A DNA stretch of 64,000 nt from an uncultured Chloroflexia bacterium (GCA_963763775.1 CAVXPZ010000002.1:74275-138274), one strand, 5' to 3'. Positions 39,852-49,411 are shown, numbered from the stretch's first letter. A program made the numbers and translations. The notes: a model not told the origin generated them from the letters alone.

Positions 39852-42174
39852 CTACGCGGCTCGGTGGAACCCGCGCAGGCGCAGCGAGTTGGTGACGACG
39901 ATGACCGACGAGATCGCCATCGCCCCCGCGGCGAGCGCCGGGCTCAACGTGATCCCGAACGCGGGGTACAGGACGCCCATCGCGACCGGGATCAGCAGGA
40001 CGTTGTAGGCGAAGGCCCAGAACAGGTTCTGCCGGACGACGGTCATCGTGGCCCGCGAGAGTTCGAGCGCCGTCGCCACCGAGCGCGGGTCGCCGCCCAC
40101 GAGCGTGACGTCCGACGCCTCGATCGCCACATCGGCTCCGGTCCCGATCGCGATCCCCAGGTCGGCCGATGCCAGCGCGGGCGCGTCGTTGAGGCCGTCG
40201 CCGACCATCGCGACGGTGCGCCCGCCGGCCCGGAGCCGCTCGACCAGGGCCGTCTTGTCGGCCGGGCGCGCATCGGCGAGGACGTGCTCCGGCAGGATGC
40301 CGACCGCGGCCGCGACCGTCTCCGCGGTCGACCGGCCGTCGCCGGTGGCCAGCCACGTCTCGATGCCGGCGCGGCTGAGCGCCCCGACCGCCGGGGCGGC
40401 CTCCGCTTTCACCGGATCGGTGATCGCGATGGCCCCGATCGCGCGGCCGTCCATCGCGACGAACGCCACCGTCCGGGCCCCCGCCGCCGCGCTCGCCAGC
40501 AGCCCGGCCATCGGCGTGAGGTCGACGCCGCGCTCACGCACCCAGCGCTCGTTGCCGACGAGGACGACCCGCGGGCCGGTATCGGTCGTCACGGTCGCCT
40601 CGATGCCACCGCCGACACTCGCGACGAACCCCGTCGCGGGCAGGAACTCCCAACTCGTCCTGACGAGCCCGCGCCACGATCGCGGCGGCGAGTGGATGCT
40701 CGCTCCCCTTCTCCGCCGAGGCCGCGAGGTCGAGCACCGTCGCGATGCTGACGCCCGGCACCGTCAGCACGCCGTCGACGACCGGCCGGCCGAGCGTGAG
40801 CGTGCCGGTCTTGTCGAGGACGACCACCGACACCTTGTGGGCGGTCTCGAGCGCCTCGCCGCCACGGATGAGGATCCCCGCCTCGGCGCCACGCCCCGTC
40901 CCGACCATGATCGCGGTCGGGGTGGCGAGGCCCATCGCGCACGGGCAGGCGATCACAAGCACCGTGATCGAGGCCACCAGCGCATACGTCAGCCGCGGTT
41001 CCGGCCCGAACGCCATCCACACCGCGAACGTGACGGCCGACAGCACCAGGACCAGCGGGACGAAGACCTCGGCGATCCGGTCGGCGAGCCGGGCGATGGG
41101 CGCCTTCGAGCCCTGGGCGCGCTCGACGAGGGCGATGATCCGCGCGAGTGCGGTGTCGAGCCCGACATGCGTGGCACGCATGACGAACGACCCGGTCGTG
41201 TTGAGCGTGGCGCCGATCACCTCGTCGCCCGGACCCTTGGCGGCCGGGATGGGCTCGCCGGTCAGCAACGCCTCGTCGACGGCCGACGCGCCCTCGACGA
41301 CCACGCCGTCGACCGGCACCTTGTCACCGGGCCGGACCCGCAGGAGGTCGCCGACGACCACGGCCTCGAGCGGCACCTCGATGTCGCGGCCGCCGTCGAC
41401 GCGGATGGCCGACGTCGCGCTGAGCGCGGCGAGACGCCGGATCGCGCTCACGGTGCGGACCTTGGCGCGGGCCTCGAGCCACCGCCCGAGCAGCACGAGG
41501 CCGATGATGATCGACGCGCTGTCGAAGTAGGTCAGCGGCTCCAGGCCGGCCGCCTGCACGACGGACGGGAAGAGCGTGACCACGACGCTATACGCCCAGG
41601 CCGCGGTCGTCCCGATCGCGACGAGGGTGTCCATGTTGCTGGTGCCGTGTCGCGCGGTGCGCCAGGCGGACCGATAGAACCGGCGACCCGCCCAGAACTG
41701 GATGACCGTGGCCGGCACCAGCGCGATGAGATTCCGCTGCTCCATCCCGAGCCCCTCGGCCGGGATCGCCATCAGGACCATGATCCCGAACGCGACGGCG
41801 ATCGATGCGACCGCCTGGACGAGCAGCCGGTCCGCGGCTCGGGCCCGGTCGGCGTCCTCGGCGGTGCGCTCCGAGGCCAGGTCCGATGGCGTGATCGGCG
41901 TGATCGCGACGGGGCGCGGGGCGCGAACCTCGTACCCGGCGGCCTCGACCGCGCCCACGAGATCCGACCTCGTCGCCACGTCGGGCAGGTAGTGGATCGT
42001 CGCGATCTCGGTGGCGAGGTTGACGCTGGCGTCCTGGACGCCCGGCGTGTTGCGCAGGAATCGCTCGATGCGGTTCACGCAGGACGCGCAGGTCATCCCT
42101 TCGACCGGGAGGGCGAGCTCGGCGGCTGACCCGGGCCCGGTCGGTGGGATGGCGAGGACGATGGACTCAGACAT
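39852..42174 (-). CDS. copA: Cu(I)-translocating P1B-type ATPase; frameshifts near 40600-40650
   Basis: [35 protein letters not shown] and MAISS metal-binding residues. Confidence 0.92.
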
Positions 42175-42189
42175 ACTCCCTGGGAGTAT
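42173..42189. promoter_or_regulatory. Putative CsoR-type copper operator overlapping copA -10 and start
   Basis: Perfect palindrome ATACTCCC-T-GGGAGTAT; ATAC/GTAT ends around C/G tracts as in CsoR operators. Confidence 0.65.
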
Positions 42190-42214
42190 ACCACCCGCGT
42201 ACCATGGCGGACCC

Positions 42215-42802
42215 ATGCCGACCCCCATCGACGCCGACGTCGTCGTCCGGACCATCGCCGGTCCGTGGGGGCCGCTCCATGTCGCGGCGTCGGTCCGGGG
42301 CATCGTCGCGGCCGAGTCCGCGGTGACGGACGAGGCCTTCCGGTCCGGCCTGCGGCGCCGACTCGGCGACCCCGGGGCGACCCGGTCGACCGCCGTCGCC
42401 CCCGACGACCTGCGGCTCGCCCTGCTCGATCGTGCGGAGACCGCGATCGGCGAGCTCCTGGCGGGCGGACCACCGCACGACGACGTCCCGGTGGACCTCG
42501 CGGACCGTCCGGTCTGGGATCAGCGAGTGTTGGCGGCCGTCCGGGCGGTGCCGTGGGGACGGACCGCGAGCTACGGCGAGATCGCCCGGCGGATCGGCGC
42601 GCCGCGGGCGGCCCGCGCGGTCGGCGGGGCGCTGGGCCGGAACCCGGTCACGCTCCTGATCCCGTGCCACCGGGTGATCGCCGCCGACGGCACCATCGGC
42701 GGGTACGGCGGCGACGGGTGGGGTGGGCGCGAGGCTGCCCTCGAGCGAAAGCGATCGCTGCTCGCGCGCGAGGGCGTCACGGTGGCCCAGCCGGACGGCT
42801 AG
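42215..42802 (+). CDS. ogt: Methylated-DNA--protein-cysteine S-methyltransferase
   Basis: [30 protein letters not shown]. Confidence 0.93.
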
Positions 42803-42846
42803 ACTCCGCGCCACGTCGGCCGGGACGCCGACCTCGCGGAGGACCC

Positions 42847-44655
42847 ATGGCGATCGCGGCGGCCCCAGCCCCCTCCATGTTCGCGGTCTTCCGCCGGCGC
42901 GACTTCTCGCTGCTGTGGATGGCGCAGCTCATCTCGACCGCCGGGTCGGCGCTGACCGACCTCGCCGCGGGCATCTGGGTCTACCGGGAGACCGGGTCCG
43001 CGCTCGCGGTCGGACTCACGCTCATGGCGACGGCGATCCCGAGCCTCATCGTGGGTCTGCTGGCCGGGGTGTACGTCGACCGCCACGACCGCAAGCGGAT
43101 CATGATCATCACCTGCCTCGTCCAGGCGGTCGTGGTCGCCTGCATCGCGTTCGTCGTGCAGGCCGACATCATCGTCGGCCTGTATGCGCTGCTGCTCCTG
43201 AACGCAGGCGTGAAGCAGTTCTTCGACCCGGCGCACGACAGCCTGATCCCGGAGCTCGCGAGCGACGAGGAGCTGGCCTCGGCGAACGCGTTCCTGTCGA
43301 TCGCCTCGTTCGGCTCCACCGCGATCGGGTTCGCCGGCGCCGGGCTGCTGGCCAGCACGATCGGGCTCACGTGGGCCTTCATCATCGATGCCGCCTCGTT
43401 CGTGGTCGGCGCGGTCCTGATCGGGCTCATGGGCCACTACACCATGCCGCCGCCCGAGGAGGACGCGACGGTCGCGGTGATCATGGAGAACCTGCGCTCC
43501 GGGCTCTCGACGCTGTTCGGGACGCCGATCATCCGCTCGCTGTTCATCGTCGGCGCGTTCATGTTCGTCGCGTTCGGCCTCTGGAACGTGCTCCTGCTCC
43601 CGTTCTCGATCACCGTGCTCGGCGCGACCGAGTTCGAGTACGGCCTGCAGGAGGGCCTCACGTCCGTCGGGTTCGTGATCGGCTCGCTGCTGATGGCCCG
43701 ATTCGCGAACCGGCTGCCGGAACCGGCGTGGATCGTCGTCTCGCTGGTCGGCATGGGCCTCGCCGGCCTGCTGTACGCCACCGCGACCAGCGTGCCGTTC
43801 GCCATCCTCGTGGTGACCATCAGCGGGCTGCTCCAGCCGCCGTCCTCGGTGTCGCGAGCGGTCCTGCTCCAGCGGAACACCCCGCGCGAGATGCGCGGTC
43901 GCGTGTTCTCCGCGTTCTACGTCATGCGCGACGTCATCTTCCTCATCGGCATGGCCGGCGCGGGGCTCGCGGACATCATCGACATCCGGGTGCTCATCGT
44001 GGTCGCCTCGTGCCTGCTGTTCGTGTCCGCCGGGTTCACGCTGGTCGCCCCGGGGCTCGGTATCCGCACCTGGGGCGCCGCCGCCGCGCGGCTTCGCGCC
44101 GCAGCTGCGGCGCCGGGCATCGCGGGGGCACCGAGGCGCGTCGCGACCATGGCGGACTTCGACCGGCTCGCCGGCCGGACCAGCGCGTTCGCGAACCTGT
44201 CGCCGACGCAGCGCGAGGCGTTCATCGCCGACGCCAGCGTCCACGACATCGAGGCCGGCACGCGAGTCCTCGAGCATGGCGACGCGGCGACGAGCGCCTA
44301 TTTCATCCTCGAAGGGTCGACGACGGCCGGCGTCCCCACCGAGGGCGGTTACCGCGGACTCTCGACGATGGCCGCCGGCGACTTCTTCGGGGAGATCGCG
44401 GCGCTGACCGGCAGCGTGCGGACGGCCGACGTCGTGGCGGACACGAACGCCGTCCTGCTCGAGGTGCCGGCCGAGGCGCTTCGCGGGGCGATGGCGGTCC
44501 CGGAGGTCGACCGTCTGGTGATGTCGACCCTGAACAGCCGGATCCAGCGGACCGAGAACGCCGACCTGCCGAGGCTCGCGGGCGTCGACCAGGCATCACT
44601 CAAGGACCTGCGGACGTCGCACGTCGAGGCCGACGCCGAGGCCGCCGCGTCCTGA
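42847..44655 (+). CDS. MFS transporter (DHA3-like) fused to a C-terminal cyclic-nucleotide-binding domain
   Basis: RDFSLLWMAQLIS, GVYVDRHDRK, LLQRNTPREMRGRVFS; then AYFILEG..GDFFGEIAAL..VRTADV. Confidence 0.9.
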   Translation: MAIAAAPAPSMFAVFRRRDFSLLWMAQLISTAGSALTDLAAGIWVYRETGSALAVGLTLMATAIPSLIVGLLAGVYVDRHDRKRIMIITCLVQAVVVACIAFVVQADIIVGLYALLLLNAGVKQFFDPAHDSLIPELASDEELASANAFLSIASFGSTAIGFAGAGLLASTIGLTWAFIIDAASFVVGAVLIGLMGHYTMPPPEEDATVAVIMENLRSGLSTLFGTPIIRSLFIVGAFMFVAFGLWNVLLLPFSITVLGATEFEYGLQEGLTSVGFVIGSLLMARFANRLPEPAWIVVSLVGMGLAGLLYATATSVPFAILVVTISGLLQPPSSVSRAVLLQRNTPREMRGRVFSAFYVMRDVIFLIGMAGAGLADIIDIRVLIVVASCLLFVSAGFTLVAPGLGIRTWGAAAARLRAAAAAPGIAGAPRRVATMADFDRLAGRTSAFANLSPTQREAFIADASVHDIEAGTRVLEHGDAATSAYFILEGSTTAGVPTEGGYRGLSTMAAGDFFGEIAALTGSVRTADVVADTNAVLLEVPAEALRGAMAVPEVDRLVMSTLNSRIQRTENADLPRLAGVDQASLKDLRTSHVEADAEAAAS

Positions 44656-44668
44656 CCCACGCTCGGGC

Positions 44669-44734
44669 TGTCGGGCAGCTGACAGCGGCAGGGTCGCAGG
44701 TGGACTTCACCGAGCCCCGACCGTGGCCTAAGGT
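44669..44734 (+). promoter_or_regulatory. Candidate promoter of the 67-aa peptide with upstream Crp-family-like palindrome
   Basis: TTCACC-17 bp-TAAGGT (44706-44734); TGTCG-N6-TGACA at 44669-44684. Confidence 0.4.
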
Positions 44735-44767
44735 TCGGTCATCCAGGAAGGACGAAGGAGGCGCGAG

Positions 44768-44971
44768 ATGCAGAAGAAGATCCAGCTCCCGAAGGAAGCC
44801 GGCGTCGGACCCGAGGATGCGACCAAGCGGCACACCGCGCTCGACGAGGACGATGTCGAGGGCCACCGCGTCGCCACGAAGAACCCCGAGCCCTTCTCCC
44901 CGCACCTCCCCTCGACGGGCGGCGAGCTGACGGACGACGCCCCCGGCAGCGAGGACCTCGCCAAGCGCTAG
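44768..44971 (+). CDS. Small acidic peptide (67 aa) with repeated G[PS]EDxxKR and a DDVEGH motif
   Basis: AAGGAGG at 44755-44761, genome-like codon usage, followed by a terminator hairpin. Confidence 0.78.
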   Translation: MQKKIQLPKEAGVGPEDATKRHTALDEDDVEGHRVATKNPEPFSPHLPSTGGELTDDAPGSEDLAKR

Positions 44972-44994
44972 GTTCGCGCATCGAGCGCCGATCG

Positions 44995-45030
44995 GAGACC
45001 GTCCCGTCCGACTGGACCGGACGGTCTCTT
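44995..45030. terminator. Hairpin between the peptide gene and the convergent subtilase gene
   Basis: GAGACCGTCC...GGACGGTCTC-TT, 10-bp stem. Confidence 0.65.
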
Positions 45031-45866
45031 CACGTCCGGGTCTCGCCGGGGTCGTTCGCCGTCGCGGCGAGGAGGCTCTTGATCTCGAACGGGCTCGCGT
45101 CCGGATACCGGCTGCAGAGGCGCGCCGCCTGGCCCGCGAGATGCGGGGCCGCGAACGAGTTCCCGGTGACGCGGATCCGGGTCCCGCCGAGCCAGGCCAC
45201 GTCCACATCGACGCCGTGCGCCCCGAACTCGACCGGCGGCGCGGGGTTGTAGAACCAGATCGACGGGTCGCCGAGGTCGTGGGCGGCCGTCGAGATGACC
45301 GTCGCGAAGAGCGAGGGGTACGACGGCCCCAGGACGTTGTTCGCGGCACTCACGAAGAGGGTGTTCGCGAAGTAGGCGCGGTCCGCCGTCTCGTGGAAGA
45401 GTCCGTGCAGGGCCTCGCTCCGCGACGACAGGCTCAGGTTCACGACCCGGATGCCCTCGTCGATCGCCCAGTCGAGGGCGGTCAGGAACGCGAGCCCCTT
45501 GCCGCGGTTGTCCGGTCCGAGGACCCGCACCGACACGAGCGACGCCGCCGGCGCGATGGCGTGGATGATCCCGGCGCACGCCGTGCCGTGGCCGACGACG
45601 TCGACGCCGGCGGGGTCGTCGGCGATCGTGGCGTCCTCGCCGTCGATCTCGACGCGGACACTCCGAACGAGCCGGCCGCCGACCGCCGGGTGGTCGCGCT
45701 CCACCCCTGAATCGATGATGGCGACCGTGACACCGTCACCGTCGCTCTCGCCGAAGACCGCATCACGCTCCAGGCGGCCGAACGGCCGCTCGCGGGTCAG
45801 GGTGGACCGGCGACCGGCCGCGAACGGCTCGCTCCAGGCTGGGAGCGGCAGGTCCGCCTCGGTCAC
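45030..45866 (-). CDS. S8 subtilisin-like serine peptidase, catalytic domain only
   Basis: IIDSG (Asp), DVVGHGTACAG (His), AANN, GNSFAAPH (Ser); no visible signal peptide or prodomain. Confidence 0.92.
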   Translation of the reverse strand: MTEADLPLPAWSEPFAAGRRSTLTRERPFGRLERDAVFGESDGDGVTVAIIDSGVERDHPAVGGRLVRSVRVEIDGEDATIADDPAGVDVVGHGTACAGIIHAIAPAASLVSVRVLGPDNRGKGLAFLTALDWAIDEGIRVVNLSLSSRSEALHGLFHETADRAYFANTLFVSAANNVLGPSYPSLFATVISTAAHDLGDPSIWFYNPAPPVEFGAHGVDVDVAWLGGTRIRVTGNSFAAPHLAGQAARLCSRYPDASPFEIKSLLAATANDPGETRT

Positions 45867-46681
45867 GACCGCGACGGCCGATGCGGACCGCGGCGGGCGT
45901 TGCGCCGCAGGACCGCGTCGAGGATGTCGACGACGAGGTCGGCGTCGTCCGCATCGATCGCCCGCAGCCGCGCGAGCCGGTCCGCGATCCGCCAGACCGG
46001 CGCGTCCTCGGTGGCCTCGCCGGTGAACGCGGCACCGACCAATGCCTCGATCGCGGCGTCGTCGAGCGCGCCGGGCGCGGCCGCCGCGACCGAGATCAGC
46101 GCGTCGCGGAGGAGATGCGCCCCGTGCCGCTCGAGGCGCGTCGCCTGGATCGCGACACTCGCCTGTCGGGCGAACACCGTCGCGAGCTCGATGTCGCGCA
46201 GGCCGAAGGTCGTCCCGTCGAGTCGGTCGAGGATCTCGAGGACGCCGATGACGTCCGCATCGGCGACGAGCGGCACCGCCAGCAGCGACCGCGGGACGTA
46301 GCCGGTCCGTTCCGCGGCGTCACGGCCGAACCGCGGATCGGCGGCCACGTCGCCGATCACCAGCGGAGAGCCGGTCGCGAACACATATCCGGCGACGCCC
46401 TCGCCGGGCTCGATGCTGAGGCCGATGACGCCCTCGCCTCGGGCGCCGGCCGCGACGCGAAAGACGAGTCGGTCCGTCGAGGGATCGTGGAGGGCCAGCG
46501 ACGCCGCCTCGGACCCGAACATCGCGACCGTGGCCTCGACGATGCTCCGCAGCACGGCCTCGCCACCGGGCGGCTCGAGCCGGCTCGCCGCATCGAGTCG
46601 GCGGGCGACGGCCGTCAGTGCCCCGAGGGCCGCCGCCAGGTCGGCGGAGGAGCCCGCGCCCGGGTCTCGGGGCTCGCTCAC
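45863..46681 (-). CDS. Stand-alone GAF domain protein with C-terminal helical extension
   Basis: GEGVAGYVF..G, DPRF, TGYVPRSLLAVPL, IGVLEILDR..F..RDIE; GTG overlaps crp stop. Confidence 0.88.
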   Translation of the reverse strand: MSEPRDPGAGSSADLAAALGALTAVARRLDAASRLEPPGGEAVLRSIVEATVAMFGSEAASLALHDPSTDRLVFRVAAGARGEGVIGLSIEPGEGVAGYVFATGSPLVIGDVAADPRFGRDAAERTGYVPRSLLAVPLVADADVIGVLEILDRLDGTTFGLRDIELATVFARQASVAIQATRLERHGAHLLRDALISVAAAAPGALDDAAIEALVGAAFTGEATEDAPVWRIADRLARLRAIDADDADLVVDILDAVLRRNARRGPHRPSRS

Positions 46682-47395
46682 CGACGCACCGCATCCGCCA
46701 GGCGTCCGGGGTCCGGGACCACCAGCACGTCCCCGTCGAAACGCAGCACGTCGTCGGCGACCAGCTCGGCCAGCAGCCGGTTGACCGACTGGCGTGACCC
46801 GCCGATCATCCCCGCGAGCTCGGCCTGGGTATACGGCCACGGCGAGCTGCGCCCCACCGGCCGGCCACCCGTCGTCGCCATCGCCGCCGATCGACCGGAG
46901 GATGTGCTTGGCGAGGCGCCCCGACAGGTCGAGGAAGTGCAGGTCTTCGACCTGGGCGGTCAGCCGACGGACCTCGGTCGCGAGCGAAGCGAGCAGCGCC
47001 CGGCGCATCCCCGACTCCTGGTCGAGCAGCCGGTCGAACGCCTCGCGACGCAGGATGAGGACGATGGTCTCCTCGAGCGACTCGACCGTCGCCGATCGTG
47101 GCGCGCCGTCCAGCAGCGACAGCTCCCCGAAGAAGCCGCCCGGACCGATGGTCGCGAGGATGGCGGGCTCGGCGCCGTCGTCGGACGGGAGGACGACCTT
47201 GACCGAGCCGCTGACGACGACGAAGAGGGCGTCCGCCGGATCGCCGACGTGGAAGATGACCTCACCGCGGCGCGACCTTCGCTGTCGCATGGCGTCGACG
47301 CAGAGGTCGACGGAGCGTTCGTCGAGGTCCGCGAACAGCCGGCAGGCGCGCAGCGCGTCGTGGCCGATCGAGCGGTCGAATGCCGTGAGCACCAT
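46678..47395 (-). CDS. Crp/Fnr family transcriptional regulator; frameshift near 46850
   Basis: FFGELSLLDGAPRSATV cNMP cassette, RLAK, then TQAELAGMIGGSRQSVNRLL HTH in a second frame. Confidence 0.9.
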
Positions 47396-47422
47396 GCACG
47401 CCATCGTACGGCGTGCGGACCG

Positions 47423-48103
47423 CTACGGGCGCGGCACCGGGCGCATCGGGTAGACGCCGATCACGACGGGCGTCCGGGGGTCGAGCGAGAGCTCGTAGCC
47501 GACCTCGCCGGCGCGGACCAGCTCGCCGAGCAACTGCCCCTCGCGGGCCGGCAGCCCGACGAAGATGCGCCCGGGATCGAGGTCGATCGGGCTGACGTCG
47601 TCGTCGCCGGTGTCGATCGCGAACCGACGCCGCAGCTCGTGCATCGGCACGTAGGGACGGCTCTTGATGAAGCGGCGCAGCTGCGGGGCGGTGCACGCCG
47701 TGCCGCGGTCCCCGCCGTTCATCGGCCGATCCTGAGGGCCGGAGGGCGGCCCGTGGCCCGGCGCGGGCATCGGGCCGGACGGACGCGAGGGCGGCACGAC
47801 CGAGGGAGCCGGTCGCTCGATGGGCGGGGCGTTCCCCGGCGCGGCGTTCCCGCCGGCGGGGGCGGGGGCGGCGCTCGGCGGGAGCGAGGCCGGCGTCGGG
47901 AGCGCGGGCTGCGCCGCGGACGCGGTCGGCGCAGCAGGCGCGGTCGGCGCGGATGGGGCCCCCGACGGCAGCGCGGGCTTCTCCGCCGGGATCGCGGGCA
48001 GCTCGGCAGCCTGGACGGCGCGAGGCTCGCCCGGCTGGCCCGGACGTGGTCCGGGCTGGCGGGCGCGCTCGTGGTGGTGCGCGCGACCGCGGCGCCGGCT
48101 CAT
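47423..48103 (-). CDS. Hypothetical protein: Pro/Ala-rich N-terminus, ~90-aa globular C-terminal domain
   Basis: Low-complexity first ~130 aa, then QLRRFIKSRPYVPMHELRRRF...GELVRAGEVGYEL; start uncertain. Confidence 0.65.
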   Translation of the reverse strand: MSRRRGRAHHHERARQPGPRPGQPGEPRAVQAAELPAIPAEKPALPSGAPSAPTAPAAPTASAAQPALPTPASLPPSAAPAPAGGNAAPGNAPPIERPAPSVVPPSRPSGPMPAPGHGPPSGPQDRPMNGGDRGTACTAPQLRRFIKSRPYVPMHELRRRFAIDTGDDDVSPIDLDPGRIFVGLPAREGQLLGELVRAGEVGYELSLDPRTPVVIGVYPMRPVPRP

Positions 48104-48253
48104 CGGTCGGTCGACCCGGGCTGGACGGCTCGGATCGGTGCGGCGCCGCTGTGGCAGCGCTGGAAGGTCAGGTTCATCAGGTCTCGGAGGAGGGCGGCTC
48201 GATCAGGCAGGGCCGTCGCCCGATGATACCGCACGCTCCGATGGGCGCCGGGC

Positions 48254-49411
48254 TCAGCCGTCGACGACGTACAGCTCCCGAGCGGCCTCGTTGAGCACGA
48301 CCGGCCCGTCCGGGCCACACGCGACGATGTCCTCGATCCGCGCCCCGTACTCGCCGACGAGGTAGATCCCGGGCTCCACGGAGAACGTCATGCCCTCGCG
48401 GAGCGCCAGCGCATTGCCCGCGACCAGGTAGGGGTCCTCGTGGCCGTCGAGGCCGATCCCGTGGCCCGTCCGATGGAAGAACGCCTCGCCGTAGCCCGCG
48501 GCGTCGATCGGCCGGCGAGCCGCCGCGTCGATGTCCTCGCACGCCTCGCCGGGCCGGACCGCGGCGGTGGCCGCCGCCTGGGCGGCGTACAGCACGCCGA
48601 AGAGCTGCTGGAACCCGTCGTCGGGCCCCTTGGCCGGGTCGCCGCCGGTCACCCACAGGGTCCTCGTGATGTCCGATCCGTACCCGCCGAGCACGCCGCC
48701 GATGTCGAGCACGATGGGCTCGCCCGCGCCGATGACGCGGTCCGACGCCTCGTGGTGCGGCGACGCCGAGTTCGGTCCGGAGGCGACGATCGCGAACAGC
48801 CCGACGTCGTGACCCTCCTCGATGAGGCGTGCCGTGACCTCGCTGGCGACGTCCGCCTCGGTCCGCCCGATCAGCCGGCCCGCGGCGATGCTCGCGACGA
48901 CCCGGTCGGCGGCGTGGGCAGCGAGCGTCAGCAGGGCGATCTCGTCCGTGTCCTTGATCATCCGCAGGTCGCGCAGCACCGAGGACGCGAGCCGGAACGC
49001 CCCGTCGGGGAGTTCGCCCTGGAGTCGCAGCAGGTGCATGGCGATGAGCGTGTCCGAGACCGCGAATCGGCTCGCGTGGGGCCGGCGTGCCCGGACGTGG
49101 CCGGCGACGAGGGCGTAGGCATCCTCGGTCTCACCCCAGGTGAGGATGTCGACGTCCGTCCGGAGACCGCGCTCCGCCGCGCCACGCTCCAGTCGCGGGA
49201 CGACGATCACCGGTTCGTGCCCCGGCACCACGACGAGCATCGTCAGGCGCTCGAGCGGCATCGCCTCGTAGCCGGTGAGGTAGCGGAGATCAGATCCGAC
49301 GCCGATGAGGAGCGCGTCGAGCCCGGCGGCGGCGGCCGCCTCGCCGGCCGCCGCGAGGCGTGCCGCGTAGCGAGTGCCGGGGATCGTCGGACGAGCCATG
49401 TCGATGGTCAT
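48254..49411 (-). CDS. Xaa-Pro peptidase (M24B family)
   Basis: DLRYLTG, RMIKD, PHH, DIG..SDITRT, HRTGHGIGLDGHE, EPGIY, RIED. Confidence 0.93.
   Translation of the reverse strand: MTIDMARPTIPGTRYAARLAAAGEAAAAAGLDALLIGVGSDLRYLTGYEAMPLERLTMLVVVPGHEPVIVVPRLERGAAERGLRTDVDILTWGETEDAYALVAGHVRARRPHASRFAVSDTLIAMHLLRLQGELPDGAFRLASSVLRDLRMIKDTDEIALLTLAAHAADRVVASIAAGRLIGRTEADVASEVTARLIEEGHDVGLFAIVASGPNSASPHHEASDRVIGAGEPIVLDIGGVLGGYGSDITRTLWVTGGDPAKGPDDGFQQLFGVLYAAQAAATAAVRPGEACEDIDAAARRPIDAAGYGEAFFHRTGHGIGLDGHEDPYLVAGNALALREGMTFSVEPGIYLVGEYGARIEDIVACGPDGPVVLNEAARELYVVDG

Follow-up and report, generated by a model that had tools for sequence, protein, structure and literature searches.

A candidate cyclic-nucleotide-controlled module for peptide production around an S8 protease and a GAF protein in Chloroflexota

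We analysed a 64,000-nucleotide stretch of DNA from an uncultured Chloroflexia bacterium (GCA_963763775.1, CAVXPZ010000002.1:74275-138274; hereafter the window). Five contiguous genes in it encode a transporter of the major facilitator superfamily (MFS) fused to a cyclic nucleotide monophosphate (cNMP)-binding (CNB) domain, a 67-residue small protein, an S8 protease, a GAF-domain protein and a Crp-family regulator. The S8 and GAF genes, mostly with crp, often with an MFS gene and with small proteins that bear a short acidic motif, D-[VT]-E-G-[HQ], form one neighbourhood across Chloroflexota. These genes occur together far more often than chance would give, and more than simple synteny explains. 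On balance, we lean towards a conserved module under cyclic-nucleotide control that makes peptides from ribosomal precursors.

In the proposed scheme, cNMP-bound Crp would bind TGTCG-N6-CGACA and switch on the precursor gene, and where a repeat gene heads the operon, crp-GAF-S8 would be switched on too. The cytoplasmic subtilase would recognise a [DE]-V-x-G-[H/Q/Y/F] junction and cut the precursor there. A tandem-repeat precursor would yield many copies of a lineage-specific peptide, and the single-motif 67-mer of the window one C-terminal fragment. The GAF protein would be a ligand-sensing regulatory partner of the protease, made in a fixed ratio with it through overlapping stop and start codons. 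Export of the product would perhaps fall to the EntS-like MFS, with gating by the transporter's own cNMP domain. A peptide signal is one of several possible product roles, along with an antagonist and a metal binder.

The conserved neighbourhood and its motif proteins

The window lies on contig 2 of a four-contig, 3.3-Mb metagenome-assembled genome (MAG) with 87% completeness. It was compared with 80 species-representative loci, nearly all of Chloroflexota, Candidatus Limnocylindrales or Limnocylindria, with a same-genus set of 15 loci and with a distant set of 20 loci from other families. The first-pass annotation of the window had staked its proposal on the co-occurrence of the homologues and on a conserved peptide open reading frame (ORF) nearby, and both were clearly found in this comparison.

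GAF adjoins S8 in 77 of the 80 loci, the three misses being contig ends, a Crp helix-turn-helix (HTH) domain is encoded in 70 and an MFS gene lies within 5 kb of S8 in 59. At the distant loci, the GAF gene adjoins S8 in all 20; about 16 have a Crp-like or other CNB gene no more than a few kb away, and about 11 an MFS gene. Within the genus, crp-GAF-S8 is present at 14 of 15 loci, and at the fifteenth (L021) a crp match beside GAF-S8 was not found. Two distant loci (L083:2669-5878 and L086:4102-7101) have before GAF, in place of the small Crp, a gene for a protein of about 1000 residues with a C-terminal CNB match.

The genus loci fall into two arrangements. Type A (11 loci) has MFS-CNB and the peptide gene, then convergent S8-GAF-crp, and its MFS orthologue, convergent on S8, is 54–79% identical to that of the window. 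In type B (four loci), all of the genes share a strand: MFS-CNB, which is 27% identical, crp, GAF and S8. The other arrangements hold an MFS-CNB of 25–39% identity to that of the window.

Full-length S8 orthologues occur in 149 of 258 genomes of the family, in none of 42 in a small-genome sister family and in 47 of 401 in a phylum-wide sample, where they spread over many families and concentrate in some (e.g. 13/16 and 10/12). The first and last of these tallies each hold one unpublished genome (G223 and G454), the removal of which shifts each by one. S8 clusters of similar sequence in a protein atlas bear Chloroflexota and Actinomycetota labels.

An orthologue of the 67-mer is found at the same place in all 11 type A genus loci, one being frameshifted (L019). 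Residues K3, P8, D29-V-E, H33, P40, GGE and D56 are invariant in its alignment (A1). The protein has no match in Pfam or NCBIfam, including the leader families NHLP, Nif11 and aroma-sacti of peptides that are ribosomally synthesised and then modified after translation (RiPPs). Its profile retrieved 93 representatives at E≤1e-3 and 36 at E≤1e-10 from 1.84 billion proteins, and many of them have multiple motifs.

The S8-GAF neighbourhoods of other genera and families encode proteins of 2–10 tandem units, each closing with acidic residues and D-[VT]-E-G-H, and these tandem proteins have no Pfam match. Their spacers of 13–48 residues are near-identical inside a protein and unrelated across species, and the motif is constant. 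Type B carries DDTEGQ repeats, up to 10 copies, in a gene heading the MFS-CNB/crp/GAF/S8 array; the DDTEGQ clade comprises L023, L025-L027, L149, L157, L159, L162, L164 and L171. The 67-mer profile gave 0–1 weak matches in four type B genomes, and their motif proteins were found only once the His was relaxed to Gln.

The strict motif [DE]D[VT]EG[HQ] is found 232 times in the 0.92 Mb that lie within 5 kb of S8 and twice in the 0.62 Mb beyond, an enrichment of about 77-fold over the far parts of the same loci. It occurs three times in the 3.3-Mb genome and at least once in 73 of 99 loci. With the five-residue form, D-[VT]-E-G-[HQ], 72 of 80 Limnocylindria loci have a motif gene in one of three fixed places, and some have two. 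The gene follows S8 in convergent orientation in 48 of the 80, precedes crp in 28 and stands between crp and GAF in 7. A search for recurring short DVEGH ORFs near the homologues, which the annotation had proposed as a check, proved the key.

The motif proteins also vary in what surrounds the motif. Tandem DVEGH proteins encoded before crp (L109-L135 and others, e.g. L111:7540-8376 and L119:7401-8297) share a basic helical tail of about 45 residues after the last motif (...P.LAR.LA...E.DIQR...), which is missing from the convergent-type peptides and could be a docking element. Three loci of one family (L074:5561-6322, L075:6305-7771 and L078:7069-7959) encode larger proteins, convergent to S8, in which two or three D[VT](E/Q)GH motifs precede a predicted transmembrane helix and a Gln/Ala-rich tail. 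These may be membrane-anchored members of the motif family.

Other precursor types accompany the S8-GAF pair in distant families. Five loci outside the DVEGH/Q type (L082, L083, L084, L087 and L093) encode small proteins with a helical N-terminal part, [DE]VQG[YF] and an aromatic-rich tail. One of these matches the NCBIfam aroma-sacti cluster domain above its cut-off (7.8e-17), and an ORF with a radical-SAM-type CxxxCxxC motif adjoins it. L087 has a radical-SAM/aroma-sacti set about 4–5 kb from S8. No tandem-repeat DNA adjoining S8-GAF was found in the distant non-DVEGH loci.

RamC/LanKC-like genes lie directly beside the S8-GAF pair in L085 and L091 and about 5 kb away in L086, which encodes an NHLP-like peptide with EVAGY. 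The low-GC Chloroflexota locus L085:3952-13055 looks like a complete class III lanthipeptide cluster, with genes on one strand for a 75-residue NHLP-like peptide (EVSGY), a RamC_N/Pkinase/LANC_like synthetase, GAF, S8, MFS and an adenylate-cyclase/NB-ARC/TPR protein. The NHLP-clan matches of the distant-family peptides are under the cut-off. Read together, the precursor types may share the junction [DE]-V-x-G-[H/Q/Y/F].

A palindrome, TGTC-N8-GACA, is centred about 91 nt 5′ of the ATG of the peptide gene in the window. In the aligned upstream regions of 11 peptide genes (the window and 10 loci, L019 being left out because its ORF is frameshifted), TGTC..AG..GAC is invariant in all. The palindrome has this one match in the window and 67 of 100 shuffles hold at least one, so alone it is not unusual. 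In the 3.3-Mb genome, nine matches stand against about 23 expected by base composition, and two of the nine precede the genome's only two DVEGH ORFs, the palindrome of the second ORF being at C4:129808.

Over the 99 related loci (1.54 Mb), 89 palindromes give 58/Mb versus 2.7/Mb genome-wide, and for 71 of 117 motif ORFs one lies 144–323 nt upstream of the first motif. Type B has one palindrome before the repeat gene and one before crp, and the palindrome also occurs in distant families with a different precursor type (L082 and L084). No convincing inverted repeat was seen 5′ of crp or of the MFS gene in the window. Transcription control by a Crp-type factor, as the annotation had proposed, gains a conserved candidate operator 5′ of the peptide genes, TGTCG-N6-CGACA, which the adjacent Crp would bind.

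Two of the genomic sites deserve separate mention. The unlinked region C4:129808-130151 holds the second small ORF, starting at 129921, with EDVEGH and GP(E/D)xAAAKKAIPD sub-repeats; its vicinity holds no gene for S8, GAF or MFS-CNB. The palindrome is perfect at a third site, C1:1295258 (GGTGTCGGCTGGCCGACACC), which is flanked by a gene for a membrane protein and another that is regulator-like. This site has no DVEGH ORF, is about 3 kb away from a further MFS-CNB paralogue and possibly belongs to the same regulon.

Gene products and layout in the window

The S8 protein is a subtilase, with the Asp-His-Ser triad in order and the oxyanion Asn, scoring 100.7 bits against a PF00082 cut-off of 21.8; D52, H93, N177 and S237 are invariant in 15 of 15 aligned orthologues. 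It is a minimal subtilisin domain of the cytoplasmic type, without signal peptide or classical propeptide, has a conserved N-terminal extension (PAWSxPF) and is present in one copy in the genome. Its PDB profile matches include subtilisin BPN′ (7e-42) and an intracellular serine protease. The best NCBIfam matches, QhpE (NF049966, 9.3e-31) and mycosin (TIGR03921, 5.5e-30), are below the curated equivalog cut-offs (106.9 < 165 and 104.7 < 278.75), and the PatA match (1.3e-5) is far under its own.

The MFS protein exceeds the PF05977 cut-off (85.8 versus 27 bits) and is below that of EntS (NF007792, 86.9 versus 324); every one of its NCBIfam matches is under the equivalog cut-off. The annotation had counted up to three cNMP-sensing parts. 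Two of them, Crp and the MFS tail, have an intact phosphate-binding cassette of the G-E-x...R-[ST]-A type as read from the translations (GELSLLDGAPRSAT in Crp and GEIAALTGSVRTAD in MFS), but the third, GAF, is less clear.

The GAF model (pLDDT 84) shows a GAF domain and a helical C-terminal domain. Its best fold matches include cAMP-bound Lcd1 (28% identity, TMt 0.76), PDE2A, CyaB2 and PDE10A, and also DosS (haem), PtsP and fRMsr; the best NCBIfam matches are of the NifA, PtsP and NreA types. The DPRF/TGY..RSLL..P features that had been taken as marks of cNMP-binding GAFs are general GAF consensus, conserved in alignment A3, and not cNMP-specific. In cNMP-binding GAFs, the cNMP-contacting residues form an NKFDE-type signature, and none was seen by eye in the GAF sequence. 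Since the fold matches mix cNMP-binding GAFs with DosS, PtsP and fRMsr, a cNMP is a possible ligand for the modelled domain.

The structure prediction suggested as a check for S8-GAF gave weak support to their complex, with a median ipSAE of 0.45 (runs of 0.49, 0.45 and 0.00) against 0.00 for the best of three controls, a partner pLDDT of at least 62 and an agreement between runs of at least 0%. The complex-score mark is passed by 58 of 80 solved complexes and 2 of 110 mismatches. Scores of 0.60 or lower include only seven of the 80 solved complexes but both passing mismatches.

The five genes claimed by the first-pass annotation are all in place by Pfam scan and ORF reading (Table 1), but crp is not one ORF as assembled. 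The GTGA stop/start overlaps at 46681-46678 (crp/GAF) and 45866-45863 (GAF/S8) can both be read in the sequence, as can the peptide gene's own ribosome-binding site, and ATGA/GTGA overlaps are seen again in the relative L013. Of the terminator attributed to the peptide gene, the stable hairpin exists (1 of 200 shuffles is equally stable), but it has no U-tract and was not called by a consensus terminator scan. It is likely a bidirectional terminator. An Rfam scan of 42000-48500 at E≤1 gave zero matches.

Table 1. Features of the module in the window
Feature	Position	Strand	Basis
MFS transporter (MFS_1/MFS_3, EntS-like) with C-terminal cNMP_binding domain	42847-44655	+	PF07690 3e-41, PF05977 3e-24, PF00027 1.1e-14
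Candidate Crp/FNR-type palindromic operator TGTCGGGCAGCTGACA (TGTC-N8-GACA)	44669-44684	.	conservation and enrichment
Shine-Dalgarno AGGAGG of the peptide gene	44756-44761	+	read from sequence; 6-nt spacer to ATG at 44768
67-residue hydrophilic small protein, one DVEGH motif (residues 29-33)	44768-44971	+	conserved unannotated family
GC-rich hairpin between the convergent peptide and S8 genes	44994-45029	.	-39 kcal/mol, z -2.83
278-residue S8A subtilase	45030-45866	-	PF00082 1.2e-28
272-residue GAF-domain protein with C-terminal four/five-helix domain	45863-46681	-	PF01590 4e-20
crp-family regulator, split by one extra base near 46844	46678-47404	-	PF00027 2.4e-25 (frame of 46882-47404), PF13545 2.9e-10 (frame of 46678-46881)

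The crp gene is assembled in two frames, a cNMP part (46882-47404) and an HTH part (46678-46881), and the cNMP part shares its frame with the GAF gene in a 513-codon open frame. The CRP/FNR domain pair, N-terminal cNMP-binding and HTH_Crp_2, is present in these two frames here and in a single frame in relatives. A 151-nt contig of an independent soil run (X2) spans 46784-46930 with one mismatch and has one base fewer at 46844, so that the crp frames are rejoined. The closest relatives are long-read, few-contig MAGs with many genes apparently split. The break is probably an assembly indel; alternatively, it may be a strain-specific mutation. Logan contigs compared with the stretch shared few words (≤0.14).

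A CopA-like copper-type P-type ATPase gene nearby (39852-42303, minus strand) is likewise in two ORFs, 40534-42303 and 39852-40592, with a frameshift near 40590-40640, and is unbroken in relatives such as L013; this split is a second sign of indel errors in the assembly. On the other side, a minus-strand gene at 47423-48103 ends 19 nt before crp and encodes a 226-residue protein without a Pfam or NCBIfam match, whose N-terminus is Pro-rich and whose C-terminal domain, about 100 residues long, is conserved. Most loci of the genus keep this gene close to the module, with differing distance and orientation. All 19 class III cyclase-domain (PF00211) matches of the genome are on other contigs, which agrees with the annotation that the window has no cyclase.

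Competing readings and known systems

Several points weigh against a peptide-producing module. The neighbourhood counts come from related genomes and are not independent, and the common junction was derived by eye from the same loci on which it is counted. The DVEGH/Q motif is absent from 8 of 80 Limnocylindria and 9 of 20 distant loci, and no candidate precursor was found at L092. The MFS gene is absent within 5 kb in 21 of 80 loci and its type differs by arrangement; moreover, MFS proteins usually carry small molecules, for which a peptide of 15–40 residues is an unusual cargo.

The predicted S8-GAF complex falls in a score band where predictions are more often wrong than right unless the pairing is already likely. 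Open frames of about 550 residues looked like GAF-S8 fusions, and were rejected as such: 150 of 170 pairs are in different frames and a single one reads through in one frame without a stop, which gives no support of the Rosetta-stone kind. Finally, a leader peptidase of the LanP/AmyP type would be encoded together with both a precursor and a modifying enzyme; since the window encodes no modifying enzyme, it does not count as a RiPP cluster of the classical kind.

The chief competing reading, to which we give a real but minor share of probability, is that proteolysis is regulated inside the cell and nothing is exported. The DVEGH proteins would be Crp-induced disordered proteins, such as hydrophilins, scaffolds or regulators, their level or activity would be set by the GAF-controlled subtilase, and the MFS would be separate. 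The motif proteins are indeed hydrophilic, repetitive and without signal peptides, the S8 protein is similar to intracellular subtilisins, and the basic helical tail of the before-crp proteins suggests a function of the intact protein. The same inconstancy of the MFS, missing near S8 in those 21 loci and not of one orthologous type, fits as well.

However, the S8-GAF pair is found also in class III lanthipeptide and aroma-sacti-type clusters, the products of which are normally released. In type B, a single strand carries the whole array of repeat gene, MFS-CNB, crp, GAF and S8. Near-identical units with species-specific spacers, moreover, suit multi-copy products better than a scaffold. Production of peptides from the motif proteins remains the reading that we favour.

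A role in metal binding appears improbable. A cut at DV|EGH would expose an N-terminal X-X-His, which is an ATCUN-type Cu/Ni site, and the resulting metallophore would be exported by the EntS-like MFS; or else the intact His/Asp/Glu-rich repeats would buffer metal. The invariant His after acidic residues, one very His-rich homologue (L089), an MFS nearest to siderophore and other efflux families and CopA two genes away in the window all agree with it. As a general explanation, though, it is weakened by the whole DDTEGQ clade, with Gln for His, and by the Tyr/Phe of other families, and the CopA neighbourhood is genus-level synteny not seen in distant loci.

Inherited synteny alone, with the 67-residue ORF no functional partner of S8, GAF and Crp, is very improbable and already disfavoured: the wider region (Ogt, CopA and M24 peptidase) is syntenic in the genus and spurious ORFs are many in high-GC genomes, but the association outlives rearrangement into three gene orders, holds in other families with different flanks and comes with the motif enrichment near S8 and an operator common to the motif genes.

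A stronger version of the peptide module is doubtful in our estimate. It is a phylum-wide polyprotein peptide factory, in which cAMP-Crp would switch on tandem-repeat precursors and a GAF-regulated cytoplasmic subtilase that cuts DV(E/Q)G-(H/Q/Y) would make from them many copies of an unmodified, species-specific peptide for a cNMP-switched release. If true, bacteria would have a counterpart of yeast alpha-factor/Kex2, and cyclic nucleotides would for the first time be seen to gate transcription, maturation and export of one peptide. The S8-GAF unit would then also be the leader peptidase missing from the class III lanthipeptide and aroma-sacti clusters of Chloroflexota.

Should S8-GAF recognise [DE]-V-x-G junctions, several orphan RiPP cluster types would gain a named leader peptidase, the pair would offer a portable sequence-specific protease tool and the large cyclase repertoire (19 domain matches) would be tied to a concrete output. 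The Limnocylindria are abundant uncultured Chloroflexota of soil and freshwater, and their cell-cell and secondary-metabolite biology is nearly unknown. The module offers testable parts: a motif, a candidate operator, a cNMP-switch transporter and a candidate protease whose sensor-domain partner is unusual. What appears new here is the tandem-repeat family with DVEGH/Q, the GAF protein as a constant partner, the candidate Crp operator and the cNMP-fused MFS, and no description of the module was found in the open-access literature searched, with subscription journals and supplements outside that search.

Among known systems, S8 proteases remove RiPP leaders, and AmyP, which matures the class III lanthipeptide amylopeptin, is described in reviews as needing a (T/S/A)EVE motif (PMC10885120; PMC10125368). 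As with LanP and AmyP, the small S8 protease here is encoded beside precursor peptides, and the AmyP motif given in the reviews resembles [DE]-V-E-G. In contrast to them, the window and most Limnocylindria loci are without a modifying enzyme, and their candidate precursors are either single-motif hydrophilic proteins or made of tandem repeats. Further differences are the obligatory GAF partner, the Crp regulator and the MFS with its fused cNMP domain.

QhpE, the leader peptidase of the quinohemoprotein amine dehydrogenase gamma subunit, is a minimal cytoplasmic subtilase acting on a small peptide. It and the mycosin of the type VII secretion system are the best NCBIfam matches of S8, but no qhp or ESX genes are nearby. 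Bacterial intracellular subtilisin proteases (ISPs) likewise have no signal peptide or classical prodomain and a short conserved N-terminal extension; PAWSxPF may play a part similar to that of their LIPY motif. The ISPs, in contrast, act as general proteases and have neither a dedicated GAF partner nor motif-bearing neighbours.

The regulator, read across its two frames here, resembles CRP/FNR, with sites of TGTGA-N6-TCACA, in its cNMP and C-terminal HTH domains, and the candidate operator in its 5-N6-5 geometry and TGT...ACA core, whereas its half-site is TGTCG. The recognition helix reads SRQSVNR, with Gln at the position where E. coli CRP has Glu.

Cyanobactin PatE/PatA/PatG and yeast alpha-factor/Kex2 both have multi-copy precursors with a constant recognition sequence cut by an S8 protease. 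The present tandem proteins are like them in that several copies in one precursor are split by a constant motif. They differ in that there is no heterocyclase or macrocyclase domain, the motif is another one and the processing would be cytoplasmic.

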